Of a stretch of DNA of 18,661 nucleotides, positions 12,776-18,661 are shown piece by piece; position 1 is the first letter of the stretch; each line of letters starts with the position of its first letter. The notes under the pieces are model-generated. The model had not been told where the DNA came from, made no database searches, and was given only the letters and a program-made list of their open reading frames with translations. Source of the DNA: a virus. Its lineage: Duplodnaviria; Heunggongvirae; Uroviricota; Caudoviricetes. A program made the position numbers and the translations under genes. The DNA is taken from IMG/VR virus record IMGVR_UViG_2541047899_000006, positions 1-18,661 of that record; one strand, written 5' to 3'.

Positions 12776-13365
12776 TGGATACGTTACAGGATGATTATAC
12801 AAAATTGTTGTATGGCCTGATGCCGCCGGGACCTGCATGGTCAGATACCGACGGTGTACTTGACGGTCTGGCACCATCGCTTGTGCGTGTTCACCAGCGG
12901 GCTGATGAACTGGTGATTGAAATCGATCCCGGTCAGTCCACAGAGCTGATTGAACGTTATGAAGAATTGTATGGTTTACCTGATTCCTGTTCCCCTGTCG
13001 GAACCCAGACATTACGCCAGCGTCAGCAACGTCTTGAAGCAAAAGCCAATGTGGCTGGTGGCATAAATGAGCAGTTCTTCCTGGATCAGCTTGAGGCGCT
13101 GGGATATACCGGCGTGACGATCGAACAGTTCCAGAATCTGGATGCAAGCCCCGATCCGGAATGGGGTGATCGCTGGCGTTATTTCTGGCGTGTAACGTTG
13201 CCGGTGGATGCCGGTGCTCAGTGGCAGACATGTACGGATGCCTGCAACACACCGATCCGGACGTGGGGGGATACGGTTGCGGAGTGCGTGATTAATAAAT
13301 TATGTCCGTCGCATACCGTTGTTTTATTTTCCTATCCAGATGAGGATGAAGATGCACAGGATTGA
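12775..13365 (+). CDS. Baseplate / tail-fiber attachment protein (Mu gp48-like, P2 gpI-like)
   Basis: 196 aa; TAATG overlap with the J-like gene. Position is between baseplate J and the tail fiber. The acidic C-terminus (DEDEDAQD) overlaps the fiber gene start. Confidence 0.65.
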   Translation: MDTLQDDYTKLLYGLMPPGPAWSDTDGVLDGLAPSLVRVHQRADELVIEIDPGQSTELIERYEELYGLPDSCSPVGTQTLRQRQQRLEAKANVAGGINEQFFLDQLEALGYTGVTIEQFQNLDASPDPEWGDRWRYFWRVTLPVDAGAQWQTCTDACNTPIRTWGDTVAECVINKLCPSHTVVLFSYPDEDEDAQD

Positions 13366-14362
13366 TACGCTGACAGCGGTAAAAGATAAGTTTGGCCCGG
13401 GCAAGAACGGATTTACTGACGGAAATCTTCGCACAGGACGTCTTGCCACCTGGCTGAACAGTGCCATGTGGGATGCCATTCAGGAGGAAATCTGTGGTGT
13501 CATTGAGAAAGCCGGGATAGAACTGAATAAAGAAGAACACGACCAGCTATATAAAGCCATATTATTACTGGTGGGCGGTGCAATTAACGAAGAGGCATTG
13601 CTGATAAAAAATAATCTTTCGGATGTGGAAGATAAGGATGAGGCTGTTGAAAACCTCGGATTAAAACCCACGGTGGACAAGGCAAAAAATGCCGTTCAGC
13701 GTGATGGCGACACCATGACAGGAAAGCTGACGCTGCCCCAGACCTCCGGATTTGGTGTTAACACTGACAATACCCTGGGAGGTAACTCAATTGCTTTCGG
13801 GGATAACGATACAGGTATAAAACAAAACGGCGACGGCATTCTGGATGTTTATGCGAATGGACAGCATGTATTTCGTTTCCAGAATGGTGTGGCGATAGCG
13901 TTAAAAAATATTCAGGCCGGAAATGCTAAAAAATTCACGTTATCCAGCGCCAACAACTCCACGAAAAACGCAACGTTTAATTTATGGGGTAATTCATCCC
14001 GACCTGTAGTTGCAGAGCTTGGTGATGATTCCGGCTGGCATTTTTACAGCCAGAGAAATACCGATGGCAGTATCACATTCGCTGTAAACGGACAGATGAC
14101 CCCATCAAACTATGGAAATTTCGATGCCCGTTATCAGCAGCGAAATGGCGGCGTGCAGGATGTGCGTTATGGTTCCGAAATGTATTACAACCCGGGAGGT
14201 AACCAGGTATCCTGGACATTTCGCTCACCTTCAGGCCACGGGTTATCCGGTATTAATGTGCAGGAAACCGGAAGTAATTCGGCAGATAACATCGGCGGCG
14301 TGTATTACCGTCCGCTTCAGAAACTGATTAATGGCACCTGGTATAACGTGGCGAGTGTTTAA
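13352..14362 (+). CDS. Tail fiber protein with P2 gpH-like C-terminal receptor-binding region
   Basis: RBS GAGGA at 13342-13346, ATG at 13352; in-frame ATGs at 13340 and 13346 are alternatives. N-terminus MHRIDTLTAVKDKFGPGKNGFTDGN. The C-terminal region (GGNSIAFGDNDTGIKQNGDGILDVYANGQHVFRFQNGVAIALKNIQAG...INGTWYNVASV) closely resembles, from memory, the C-terminal domain of P2 gpH-type fibers. Confidence 0.8.
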   Translation: MHRIDTLTAVKDKFGPGKNGFTDGNLRTGRLATWLNSAMWDAIQEEICGVIEKAGIELNKEEHDQLYKAILLLVGGAINEEALLIKNNLSDVEDKDEAVENLGLKPTVDKAKNAVQRDGDTMTGKLTLPQTSGFGVNTDNTLGGNSIAFGDNDTGIKQNGDGILDVYANGQHVFRFQNGVAIALKNIQAGNAKKFTLSSANNSTKNATFNLWGNSSRPVVAELGDDSGWHFYSQRNTDGSITFAVNGQMTPSNYGNFDARYQQRNGGVQDVRYGSEMYYNPGGNQVSWTFRSPSGHGLSGINVQETGSNSADNIGGVYYRPLQKLINGTWYNVASV

Positions 14363-14364
14363 CA

Positions 14365-14910
14365 ATGTTACATTTAAAAAATATTACTGCGGGTAATCCG
14401 AAAACCGCGGAACAATATCAGCTGACAAAACAATATGGTGTCACCTGGCTTTTTTCGGAAGACGGCAAAAACTGGTATGAAGAACAGAAGAACTTTGCCA
14501 GTGACACCATAAAAATGGTTTACACCGGAGACGGGCGCGTGGTGTGGGTCGGTAAGGATGTGACAGGTATTGAACCCCGTAACGCCAGTGTTATTGAAGT
14601 TCCTGATATTACCGCTAACCGCCGCATTACCGCACCGGGTTACTGGTTCTACCGCAATGATGAATTTGTTTTTGACTACAAACTTAAAGCGGAAGATGAG
14701 CGTGATGCCCTGTTAAAACAGGTCAGCATCATGACCAGCGAATGGGAAAAAGACCTGCTGCTGGGATTAATCAGTGACGAAGACAGGGAGAAGCTGAAAG
14801 CGTACCGCATTTACGCGAAATCGCTGCAGGCGATGGATTTCAGCACCATCACTAATAAAACCTCATATAACGCTATTGAATGGCCCGCCTCTCCGGAAAC
14901 CTCTTCCTGA
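14365..14910 (+). CDS. Tail fiber assembly protein (Tfa / P2 gpG-like chaperone)
   Basis: 181 aa, immediately downstream of the fiber gene. The C-terminal end ...YNAIEWPASPETSS matches the conserved IEWP motif at the end of lambda Tfa-type fiber assembly proteins. Confidence 0.8.
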   Translation: MLHLKNITAGNPKTAEQYQLTKQYGVTWLFSEDGKNWYEEQKNFASDTIKMVYTGDGRVVWVGKDVTGIEPRNASVIEVPDITANRRITAPGYWFYRNDEFVFDYKLKAEDERDALLKQVSIMTSEWEKDLLLGLISDEDREKLKAYRIYAKSLQAMDFSTITNKTSYNAIEWPASPETSS

Positions 14911-17900: not shown

Positions 17901-18062
17901 CTTTCGTGCACAATATCTTCTGCGGGGGCTGGCTCCTACGGTTCCACACCGAGTGCAGGAGCTACAGGGTACACTTTCCCGGGGCGTTATATGGCGCTAT
18001 CCGGGGTCAGGGACTCTTACGGAACAAGCGGTCGTATCTGTCTGTTTGTGCGCATCGAGTAA
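14934..18062 (+). CDS. Side tail fiber protein (Stf-like), 1042 aa, with internally repeated collar and distal modules
   Basis: N-terminus MSVVISGALIDGAGIPMSG...YDDSKPGTLNDFL matches the prophage side-tail-fiber N-terminal domain pattern. It is followed by an Ala/Gln/Glu-rich coiled-coil shaft, then two copies of the SPAxTGTPTTPTPPDD...ANAAFVRKLLAALVDSSPExLDTLNELAAALGNDP collar motif and three divergent copies of a module with GRLAxxGMxGFG...PGRYAV...IxW. Confidence 0.85.
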   Translation: MSVVISGALIDGAGIPMSGCHIILKSRVNTSEVVMRTVADVVTGNCGEYCFKAQTGKYCVYLKQDWRDEYCVGDIAVYDDSKPGTLNDFLTALDEGDLKPDVVKRFEELVAQAQQSAEAAAESERQAGQHVADAQQIKSDCETLADNVQQNAEAVAEDKKQVAQLASSATQDAARAEQAVKDADAIVQKAVDKLADAATLTGEAKASAEAAAKSEQNAKQHRDEAQRIVDDLKGGNASTTEKGLVQLCSDTDNDSEELAATPKAVKTVMDETKTKAPLDSPAFTGTPTTPTPPDDATGLETANAAFVRKLLAALVDSSPEALDTLNELAAALGNDPEFATTIMNALAGKQPLSDVLTAISNLEERADNLLCFNQDGNASLSPLSEKARLFLSQNTEEDMRAELGLKSAAAVDVQRTLYDAGEGCVALPGAFGYGMTNAGSTVLVASNMGTIARTAHNVHPGRYYTFSTQTEETTGVTEIIWLDNNWGDKTSQTATKLVLFFGKDGRILMTVRGDNISAPVTWTNLTPQLGNAAQKDAQENIYDRTEGRLAIPGMFGFGKAFSSIDRTEFKTGADFLRWVKMAKPGRYAVYADTKAVIQGVLFSGVVEIIWPTPNDYPTDDKAYKVIIFYGINGHIYYNRYTGSGYLVGWENLKVDEASLRALIETRAPLKSPALTGTPTTPTPPDDAAGTEIANAAFVRKLLAALVDSSPETLDTLNELAAALGNDPNFATTVTKALAGKQPLNDVLTAVSQITPEENTLPYFSAEGRILLAQLSEKARALLALDTPEAMRTELELKAAATMEPQSDIRDRTPGRLALSGMYGFGQAFASTDALAFDGQADFAEWLKEATPGRYAVSIADSSTLLAGTTKFNGIIDVMWSPFDNDESDTTRKFKMLLCFNQYYEGEHSIHRLTYRWSGNNWNATVSPVIYDGDSLAFLLSRTAGSGSYFKYPAVGVPVLAVYRGTTSGDKEIKIGLGDVVPGSQLGGVNLSCTISSAGAGSYGSTPSAGATGYTFPGRYMALSGVRDSYGTSGRICLFVRIE
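15757..16170 (+). repeat. Intragenic direct repeat, copy 1 (collar plus linker of the side tail fiber)
   Basis: Highly similar at nucleotide level to 16933-17340. The two copies share identical runs, for example the 38-nt stretch ctggacacactgaacgagctggcagcggcgctgggcaa at 15897-15934 and 17070-17107. Copy spacing is 1176 nt, in frame. Confidence 0.8.
16933..17340 (+). repeat. Intragenic direct repeat, copy 2 (collar plus linker of the side tail fiber)
   Basis: See copy 1. The encoded peptides RAPLKSPALTGTPTTPTPPDDAAGTEIANAAFVRKLLAALVDSSPETLDTLNELAAALGNDPNFATT and KAPLDSPAFTGTPTTPTPPDDATGLETANAAFVRKLLAALVDSSPEALDTLNELAAALGNDPEFATT are nearly identical. Confidence 0.8.
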
Positions 18063-18076
18063 CGAGGAAATAAAAC

Positions 18077-18661
18077 ATGAAAATCAGAGCGGTAAAAGGC
18101 ATCAGAAACGCCCATTATCTCGAAAATGGTGCGGTTGACTGCGAGGTGCTATTTGAAGGTGAAACGGAATTCGTCCCGTATACCGCCATGCAGGACGATA
18201 GCGCCCCGACAGGCCAGCGCATCTGGGAAGAGTTACAGAGCGGCAAGTGGGGGGAAATCGCCCCATTCACCGTCACGCCTGAACTTATCGCAGCGGCAAA
18301 AGATGCCAAACGCCAGGAAATCGAAGCCTGGCGCACAGAACAGGAGGCGCAGCCGTTCACGTTCGAATGGAACGGTCGCACCTGGAATGCTGGCCCAGAC
18401 TCACTGGCCCGTCTCTATCCGGTGGTAATGGCTGCAAAATCTGATACGGCACGAACCGCCCTTGCGTGGGGCGACGCTGATAATCAACAGGTGAAACTGT
18501 CGATGCAGGAACTTGAAGAACTGGCGGCAGCAATGGCGCAGGCACAGGTCGATCGCAATGACGAGATTTATCAGCGTCAGCGGGAGATGAAGCAAGAGCT
18601 GAATAACCTGGAGGATTTGCATTCAATCAGGAAACTGGTCGTTAGCTCAGAAAAACCTTGA
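18077..18661 (+). CDS. Putative tail fiber assembly / chaperone-like protein (second fiber cassette)
   Basis: 194 aa, RBS GAGGA 8 nt upstream, immediately after the long fiber gene; stop TGA at 18659-18661, the last bases of the window. It lacks the IEWP end of classical Tfa. It resembles proteins I recall as a domain-of-unknown-function family encoded after tail fibers (unverified). Function inferred from position. Confidence 0.5.
   Translation: MKIRAVKGIRNAHYLENGAVDCEVLFEGETEFVPYTAMQDDSAPTGQRIWEELQSGKWGEIAPFTVTPELIAAAKDAKRQEIEAWRTEQEAQPFTFEWNGRTWNAGPDSLARLYPVVMAAKSDTARTALAWGDADNQQVKLSMQELEELAAAMAQAQVDRNDEIYQRQREMKQELNNLEDLHSIRKLVVSSEKP

Follow-up and report, generated by a model that had tools for sequence, protein, structure and literature searches.

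At the 3' end of a viral DNA stretch of 18,661 nucleotides (IMG/VR record IMGVR_UViG_2541047899_000006; the whole stretch is referred to as the window) two tail fiber genes follow each other, each accompanied by a gene for a putative chaperone. This raises the question whether the two sets are alternatives of a host-range switch, whether the second one is a passenger, or whether both serve the same virion. The DNA comes from an Escherichia prophage of the phiP27 type that combines an HK97-type head with a contractile tail of the Mu type, and the window represents its late operon. According to our analysis the 3' end of this operon carries two independent fiber and chaperone cassettes that are not switch alternatives, a reading to which we assign a probability of roughly 80%; both fibers are probably displayed on one virion. 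The identity, intactness and orientation of the genes, the absence of a switch, the conservation of the arrangement and its mosaic boundaries were observed directly. Four open reading frames (ORFs), all located on the + strand, make up the two same-strand cassettes, as had been described at the same coordinates in the initial annotation. The matches by which they were identified exceed chance expectation by a wide margin. The features of the region are as follows:

12775-13365, + strand: baseplate wedge protein of the Mu gp48/YmfQ family (PF10076, E 2.3e-25; 56% identical to e14 YmfQ)
13352-13732, + strand: N-terminal part of fiber 1 (aa 1-127), chassis-specific (matches to phiP27 L54, e14 StfP and Mu S)
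13733-14362, + strand: distal, exchangeable receptor-binding part of fiber 1 (aa 128-336), with a low GC content of 46.8% (matches to 5YVQ and P2 gpH)
14365-14910, + strand: Tfa-type tail fiber assembly chaperone for fiber 1 (PF02413; phrog_136, E 1.5e-60)
14911-14933, no strand: spacer of 23 bp between the cassettes, read from the sequence
14934-15218, + strand: Ig-like anchor ("collar") domain of fiber 2, aa 1-95 (PF08400; 9E7M; 7KJK)
15219-15764, + strand: Ala/Glu/Gln-rich stretch of fiber 2 (aa ~96-235) and Phage_fiber_2 repeat (aa 238-277)
15750-16913, + strand: fiber 2 stem A (aa 273-~400), knob 1 (~410-540) and knob 2 (546-660), delimited by internal BLASTP
16914-18062, + strand: fiber 2 stem A' (aa 664-~790), knob 3 (~800-935) and tip (~940-1042), delimited by the internal repeat
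18077-18661, + strand: DUF4376 protein, putative chaperone or cap for the fiber 2 tip, last gene of the prophage (PF14301; phrog_1141)

As to the roles of the two fibers and the docking site, we infer the following. Fiber 1 would be the baseplate fiber, with its N-terminal ~127 residues specific to the Mu-type baseplate (gp47/gp48), and its distal Mu-S/P2-H-like part would form, together with the N-terminal half of Tfa, a low-GC module that is exchanged with P2-like and other prophages. Fiber 2 would be a long accessory fiber consisting of an Stf-type anchor, a flexible linker, a presumed coiled-coil shaft, stem/knob modules and a tip. Its docking site is probably an exposed ring of the tail whose structure is conserved, the neck being somewhat likelier than the baseplate region by analogy to phage XM1. 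Fiber 2 might, like Stf of Ur-lambda, make the initial contact fast and reversible or widen the host range, and fiber 1 would trigger the baseplate.

Cassette 1: fiber 1 and its chaperone

Fiber 1 (13352-14362, 336 aa) matched tail fiber families of the PHROG database at E 1.6e-135. Its first 127 residues are nearly identical to residues 1-127 of phiP27 L54. The same N-terminus shows 60% identity to residues 1-65 of e14 StfP, and residues 30-98 match residues 34-98 of Mu S in structure 8JU3 (E 9e-7). This part, for which no counterpart was detected in the prophage type of Escherichia coli W (tblastn, E < 1e-3), presumably docks on the baseplate. For the distal part the solved Mu S fiber 5YVQ was matched by residues 180-335 (E 2.9e-21), and residues 133-336 align with residues 548-681 of a P2-type gpH (E 2e-26, 34% identity, with an insertion of ~65 residues). 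The earlier label of a P2 gpH-like C-terminal domain is acceptable on these grounds. From aa 134 onward fiber 1 is 96% identical to the fiber of the E. coli W prophage, and in E. coli E423 the distal part and tfa are also found alone, behind a P2-type baseplate. The fibers of Mu and P2 are specific for the core of the lipopolysaccharide (LPS). Homology to Mu S and P2 H points, as a weak lead, to the LPS core as a possible receptor of fiber 1.

The tfa gene starts 3 nt past the stop codon of fiber 1, directly 3' of a fiber gene of the Mu S/P2 H type. With 84.7 bits against PF02413 (Caudo_TAP; curated cutoff 22.1) and 40% identity to P2 gpG over the full length, its product belongs to the Tfa family, as the initial annotation had it. 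In comparison to phiP27 L55 (78% identity) its C-terminal half is nearly invariant.

Boundaries of DNA homology to different prophage types were found to cluster at positions 13606-13775 of the window. Homology to P2-type contexts sets in at ~13606 and homology to the W type at ~13775; for others the boundary lies at the gene start (~13342). The cluster surrounds a conserved coding stretch (NLSD...ENLGL...DGDTMTG) that seems to act as a recombination linker.

Cassette 2: fiber 2 and the DUF4376 protein

Fiber 2 (14934-18062, 1042 aa) matches PF08400 over residues 1-134 (E 3.3e-61) and Phage_fiber_2 (PF03406) over residues 238-277 (E 2.6e-15), in line with its former description as a long Stf-type fiber. 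Like lambda Stf it combines an N-terminal PF08400 anchor with a (here presumed) coiled coil and a Phage_fiber_2 repeat, but in place of a non-contractile lambdoid tail and a PF02413 Tfa partner it is accompanied by a sheath, a Mu-type baseplate and a DUF4376 gene. The anchor is matched by the N-domain of Ur-lambda Stf (9E7M, E 1.3e-17), and aa 1-197 are matched by the collar spike gp40 of XM1 (7KJK, E 3.6e-11). The Ala/Glu/Gln-rich stretch behind the anchor, which is marked by a high AT skew, presumably represents a coiled-coil shaft (aa ~96-235), judging from its composition and its alignment to the coiled coil of XM1 gp40. Fiber 1 and fiber 2 lack significant similarity to each other in an all-versus-all BLASTP (E <= 0.01), and the distal domains can indeed be called unrelated.

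The distal part of fiber 2 is built from repeated modules. BLASTP of sub-segments against each other revealed 50% identity between aa 273-503 and 664-901 (E 2e-58) and 30% identity between aa 422-525 and 546-652 (E 2e-10). On the DNA level a direct repeat of 254 nt (15759-16012 and 16932-17185, 82% identity, 1173 nt apart) could mediate in-frame deletion or expansion of the stem-knob modules. Fiber 2 is 490 aa long in phiP27 and 667 aa in pPE4; the window, E. coli W, A36 and Rac-SA53 have the three-knob variant, with 1042-1061 aa. Knob 3 plus tip of the window is homologous to the one knob and tip that phiP27 L56 possesses (28% identity). Since the stem-knob-tip module also terminates shorter fibers with other N-termini in Escherichia and Salmonella, it behaves as an exchangeable receptor-binding module. 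A predicted model of aa 790-1042 reached a pLDDT of 72, and matches of the tip model in BFVD were confined to other phage fibers.

The DUF4376 gene starts 15 nt past the stop codon of fiber 2 and is located downstream of fiber 2 in all relatives examined. Its product scored 64.2 bits against PF14301 (cutoff 25) and matched phrog_1141 at E 7e-91; no pairwise similarity to Tfa was detected. The long fiber is thus followed by a different chaperone-like gene, as suggested before, which can now be named as PF14301 (DUF4376). NCBIfam gave zero matches for all four cassette proteins. Experiments on Alteromonas V22 and Campylobacter CJIE1 have shown that DUF4376 proteins encoded just 3' of fibers are needed for active fibers, and a role as transient caps has been proposed for such fiber chaperones (PMC7289586, PMC10579305, PMC7882524). 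The protein of the window is of the V22 gp27 type: it carries PF14301 at the C-terminus, is encoded directly after a fiber and has a variable N-terminal part. In comparison to phiP27 L57 (78% identity) the N-terminal ~60 aa vary and the C-terminal domain is conserved. By analogy the E. coli DUF4376 protein probably folds or caps the fiber 2 tip, and we suggest annotating the gene as a fiber chaperone. Both chaperones show the same pattern against phiP27, with a variable N-terminal and a nearly invariant C-terminal part, which fits the modular model quoted in PMC7882524. Between the two receptor-binding modules, which vary, lies a constant backbone made up of the 3' half of tfa, the spacer and the anchor and coiled coil of fiber 2.

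A number of peculiarities were noticed in fiber 2. The anchor contains five cysteines within aa 1-71 (positions 20, 46, 50, 59 and 71; 14934-15150), and lambda Stf has one at the aligned anchor positions (Cys20) and a second one, Cys91, in the helix. The cysteines are kept in phiP27 and E. coli W and gave rise to spurious weak matches to disintegrins in the PDB. We considered the Cys-rich anchor (five versus two in lambda Stf) as a disulfide adaptation and dropped the idea because most of the cysteines are missing in Shigella and Yersinia relatives. On the - strand a 349-aa ORF with an ATG start (14912-15961) runs antisense within the shaft; its translation is Ala/Ser-rich and of low complexity, and it is most likely an artefact of codon composition. 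Many database fragments of the distal domain carry the name "shikimate transporter, partial", which is a propagated misannotation. Most distal-domain matches are fragments at contig ends, which suggests that repeated fiber genes break short-read assemblies.

Base composition and the junction between the cassettes

The fiber region as a whole had been described as more AT-rich than the upstream tail genes. This holds for cassette 1 (13352-14910, 46.6% GC) but not for cassette 2 (14934-18661, 53.6% GC), which is indistinguishable from positions 4000-13000 (53.2% GC). The exchanged AT-rich piece is cassette 1, comprising the fiber 1 tip and tfa that are common to P2-like phages, and not the Stf-type cassette. 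In the spacer (14911-14933) our scan detected neither a terminator nor a promoter. The scan yielded a single promoter-like site, which lies inside fiber 1, and terminator-like sites at the level of shuffled sequence. The lack of both elements between the cassettes suggests that cassettes 1 and 2 are likely co-transcribed.

Absence of an invertible switch

Two fiber sets in one prophage could be alternatives of a DNA inversion, as in the Mu G or e14 P segment, or of another either/or switch. The idea has some appeal here: at the equivalent position of its genome the E. coli K-12 prophage e14, which belongs to the same YmfQ/StfP chassis family, uses a Pin-invertible segment with the order stfP-tfaP/tfaE-stfE. 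In addition one degenerate gix-like core (AAACCTCGGATT) is found at 13651-13662, in the ENLGL-coding junction of fiber 1. This core is however unpaired and occurs at chance frequency. Each of the two + strand cassettes has a full-length fiber gene with its own, unrelated N-terminus, and neither a second crossover site nor an inverted repeat nor an invertase was found in the window, downstream of it or in complete relatives. More specifically, a scan with a 26-bp consensus site of the Hin/Gin/Cin/Pin type gave 0 matches at <= 3 mismatches, long inverted repeats were absent from 12700-18661, and no serine invertase gene (gin/cin/pin) lies next to the fibers in the window. The annotated recombinases of phiP27 and of the whole A36 prophage are tyrosine integrases only. 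An adjacent invertase and paired 26-bp sites flanking opposed fiber ends, i.e. the two hallmarks of invertible switches, are both missing. An inversion or any other either/or switch thus appears extremely improbable.

The initial annotation had likewise argued against a Mu G-segment-style arrangement, and had advised a look at the sequence beyond position 18661 for an invertase or further fiber fragments. Only host genes (tRNA-Ser, hyaA) and nothing phage-like were encountered there. We advise against scoring the fiber module of the window as a switch of host range by inversion. Since e14 uses a switch and the window encodes tandem fibers, this chassis family has two routes to a second specificity.

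Conservation of the module and its relatives

Of the deposited phages, the Stx2e phage phiP27 (NC_003356) is closest to the window. "Traversvirus P27" (PMC12502783) was rejected as a source for phiP27, as it is a different, short-tailed phage. In phiP27 the genes L54-L57 show the same order of fiber, Tfa, PF08400 fiber and DUF4376 gene, followed by the end of the prophage. Synteny and high identity extend over the HK97-type head, the Mu-type tail and baseplate and the four-gene fiber module, which makes the window phiP27-like. Among 5426 complete E. coli genomes the junction from tfa to the anchor is intact (>= 80% covered) in 104, i.e. about 2%. The four-gene layout has thus already been deposited and annotated, and has apparently never been studied at the virion level.

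The same terminal block also occurs in a second type of contractile-tail prophage, represented by E. coli W, Rac-SA53, pPE4 and Yersinia similis. When 20 structural proteins of the window were compared to the 41.5-kb prophage of E. coli W (tblastn, E < 1e-3), the four cassette proteins were the only ones that matched; none of the head, neck, tail and baseplate proteins, i.e. the chassis, showed similarity. Both chassis carry a sheath and a Baseplate_J protein and are therefore remote homologues at best. In contrast to this divergence fiber 2 is shared almost unchanged in its proximal part. Residues 1-222 are 96% identical in E. coli W, pPE4 has exactly the same first 100 residues, and between the window and phiP27 L56, E. 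coli W or Rac-SA53 there are 2-5 differences over the first ~110 aligned residues. Anchors of siphophage (lambdoid) Stf proteins reach at most 46% identity among the matches listed. As the anchor is almost invariant on two chassis that have no other recognizable structural protein in common, fiber 2 appears to be portable as a whole. The baseplate fiber swaps its distal half only, since the N-terminus is bound to the chassis; the Stf-type fiber moves as a unit from one contractile tail to another, unrelated one and keeps its anchor invariant. A third chassis type was not encountered in a scan of genome contigs, which returned only the W type (Yersinia similis) and chassis-less copies in Shigella and E. 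coli.

The second cassette could nevertheless be a passenger or a remnant in decay whose fiber does not become part of functional contractile-tail virions. Fibers with PF08400 belong overwhelmingly to lambdoid siphophages (307 of the 311 phage records with a match), several chassis-less copies exist in Shigella, and a decayed relative has deleted fiber 2. In this relative, E. coli 100117, fiber 1 and Tfa are retained, ymfQ is a pseudogene, and a remnant of 40 codons is left of the DUF4376 gene. We regard it as the erosion of a dead prophage and not as a sign of a general remnant status of fiber 2: infective phiP27 keeps both fibers, and the truncation of one fiber gene in relatives, which the initial annotation had named as grounds for abandoning its proposal, was seen in this one decayed case. 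In the window the ORF of 1042 codons and its partner gene are intact, and the GC content of cassette 2 matches that of its phage. The gene order is conserved in infective phiP27, in the deposited pPE4 and Rac-SA53 genomes and in the 104 complete genomes. Furthermore the anchor subtype is 96-100% conserved on contractile chassis and the distal parts diversify (490 to 1061 aa), which is the signature of receptor-binding proteins in use. We therefore consider a passenger role of cassette 2 quite improbable. The conserved order in phiP27, in the W/Rac-SA53/pPE4 type and in the 104 genomes also speaks against a recent addition of the second cassette to this prophage; the earlier suggestion of an acquired second cassette needs correction, since the recently exchanged piece is cassette 1.

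Some of the database entries deserve comment. Shigella flexneri SFBU1023 and E. coli ECMA0423 carry several copies per genome of the fiber 1 C-terminus, Tfa, a short fiber 2 and the DUF4376 gene; the 7-10 kb upstream of them contain no recognizable chassis genes, and we presume that they are prophage ends eroded by insertion sequences (IS). PP818812, named "Actinobacillus phage vB_Apl-pPE4", has the chassis of the E. coli W/Rac-SA53 type, its DNA is ~88% identical to E. coli prophages, and its host label looks doubtful. For NZ_CP026085.1 and NZ_CM135829.1, labelled as E. coli DH5alpha, the coordinates and score of the fiber block match, which was the part compared, equal those of the W-lineage strain KO11FL, and the strain label may be wrong.

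Docking site of fiber 2

In Ur-lambda a collar made of 12 StfN domains, belonging to four trimeric fibers, encircles the site where the last gpV ring meets the gpM ring (PMC12617516). Vibrio phage XM1, which has a contractile tail, carries six gp40 trimers whose homologous Ig-like domain binds the neck proteins gp4 and gp5 (PMC10457771). By the same logic the authors of RBPseg placed a fiber of a BASEL-collection phage at the neck (PMC12143355). These cases raise the possibility that the ~95-residue Ig-like anchor is a generic adaptor, which may clip onto stacked hexameric rings where their junction is exposed. The junction between tube and baseplate that is used in lambda would be covered by sheath and baseplate in a contractile tail. 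Judging from this architecture the neck would be the obvious exposed stack of hexameric rings in such a tail. Fiber 2 resembles XM1 gp40 in its homologous N-terminal Ig-like domain followed by a coiled coil, and genes for sheath and tube are present in the window. On the basis of this analogy we tentatively propose that the PF08400-anchored long fiber of these contractile-tail prophages could be a neck (collar) fiber. The identity of 96-100% across two chassis, as opposed to <= 46% to the listed siphophage anchors, suggests a distinct docking mode that tolerates different partners.

Several observations weigh against this assignment and against the proposed role of fiber 2 in general. The neck proteins of the window lack sequence similarity to XM1 gp1, gp4 and gp5 (when the four neck proteins were concatenated and searched against the PDB, no XM1 chain matched), so that neck docking has no direct sequence support. 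The anchor itself is ~25-30% identical to XM1 gp40, as estimated from the alignment, and ~45% identical to lambda Stf, which docks near the tail tip and not at the neck. Virion microscopy or proteomics of phages of the phiP27 or Rac-SA53 type was not found in the searchable literature. The decayed relative without fiber 2 implies that this fiber is dispensable for prophage maintenance. Finally, the knob/tip model gave no convincing match to a solved receptor-binding homologue, and therefore no receptor can be proposed for fiber 2. Homology of the C-termini, which had been recommended as a guide to the receptor class, was thus of use for fiber 1, where it gave the LPS-core lead, but not for fiber 2.

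An alternative would be a distal mounting of fiber 2, in which both fiber sets project from the baseplate towards the cell. Lambda Stf (~45%, E 1.3e-17), which adjoins the tail tip, is a closer relative of the anchor than XM1 gp40 (E 3.6e-11), and the fiber 2 gene directly follows the baseplate and fiber genes. Besides, the block shared with E. coli W includes the distal half of fiber 1 and Tfa, so a docking partner may be encoded within the block. However, the junction of bare tube and gpM around which the lambda collar wraps would be hidden under sheath and baseplate in a contractile tail. In phiP27 the distal part of fiber 1 differs and the anchor is essentially the same, so the anchor does not co-vary with fiber 1. 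Between the baseplate proteins of one chassis and those of the other no similarity was detected at E < 1e-3. On balance we consider a distal mounting unlikely, though by no means far-fetched.

Between the genes for head completion and tail terminator the window encodes a basic protein of 173 aa (2825-3346) that belongs to no Pfam family; its phiP27 equivalent is annotated as "tail completion or Neck1". This protein would be a candidate docking partner if fiber 2 is a neck fiber.

A neck adaptor, if true, would explain the transfer of the whole fiber between myovirus chassis without recognizable shared structural proteins, and it would provide temperate E. coli myophages with a second receptor-binding layer of the plug-and-play kind, independent of the baseplate. 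If the anchor docked on a generic ring such as the neck, it could moreover serve as a convenient handle for re-targeting engineered phages or tailocins, and the host range of temperate enterobacterial myophages would have a second route along which to evolve. Of all features of the locus only the portable, invariant anchor might repay experimental work. Otherwise the result is the correct annotation of an ordinary prophage fiber module, mainly useful for curation.

Prophage context

All long ORFs of the window are located on the + strand. The head and neck genes comprise, in this order, an HK97-type prohead protease, the major capsid protein, a gp6-like connector, a head-completion protein, a neck protein and the tail terminator. 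They are followed by sheath, tube, tail assembly chaperone and tape measure genes and by a Mu-type baseplate set consisting of a DNA-circularisation protein (gpN type), a GpP-like baseplate protein, gp45, gp46, Baseplate_J/gp47 and gp48/YmfQ. The last of these is the last conserved chassis gene and overlaps with the start of fiber 1 by 14 nt. In Escherichia contigs that match the last gene of the window exactly, tRNA-Ser(tga) follows 141 bp downstream of 18661, and then hyaABCDEF. The presence of these host genes right after position 18661 implies that the window reaches the very end of the prophage. In the closest complete genome, E. coli A36, the prophage sits between yccA and tRNA-Ser/hyaA.

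Comparison with known systems

Among deposited phages phiP27 is the most similar, with the same Mu-type baseplate genes and a fiber 2 that is nearly identical over aa 1-~170. It differs in the distal part of fiber 1 and in its integration site and carries stx2e; moreover its fiber 2 of 490 aa has one knob plus tip, whereas that of the window (1042 aa) has three knobs and a duplicated stem. The prophages of the Rac-SA53/E. coli W/pPE4 type share the prophage-terminal block of fiber 1 from aa 134, Tfa, the whole of fiber 2 and the DUF4376 gene, including a full-length three-knob fiber 2 that is 72-89% identical to that of the window. Their chassis has a different contractile tail with a sheath of phrog_205 and a Baseplate_J protein of 408 aa.

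The invertible systems of Mu (G segment, S-U/S'-U', Gin) and e14 (P segment, stfP-tfaP/tfaE-stfE, PinE) resemble the window in the chassis family and in the N-terminus of fiber 1, and in each case one phage gains two receptor specificities. There inversion swaps alternative C-termini on one constant N-terminus, while the window encodes two complete fibers in tandem with different anchors. Phage V22 (gp26/gp27) and CJIE1 (H-fiber and downstream gene) likewise encode a DUF4376 protein right behind a fiber that is needed for its maturation or assists it, and knob duplication has been described for these fibers as well. Here the fibers themselves are unrelated, the DUF4376 domain is the sole shared part, and the E. 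coli proteins are known from sequence.

Stf/Tfa of Ur-lambda has a homologous Ig-like anchor (E 1.3e-17), a linker, a coiled coil and the Phage_fiber_2 repeat, and the same accessory role in fast adsorption is proposed. Ur-lambda is however a siphovirus with the anchor on the exposed gpV/gpM junction and a PF02413 Tfa chaperone, as opposed to the contractile tail, the DUF4376 partner gene and the unrelated distal domains of the window. XM1 gp40 shares with fiber 2 the homologous N-terminal domain, the coiled coil and the contractile tail; it binds to the neck, and XM1 has baseplate fibers, too. Differences are the low identity, the tailspike-like end of gp40 and neck proteins that are not detectably similar to those of the window. 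The module would work like a dual receptor-binding system, comparable to Stf plus J of Ur-lambda or to the collar spike plus baseplate fibers of XM1, and not like the switch of Mu or e14.

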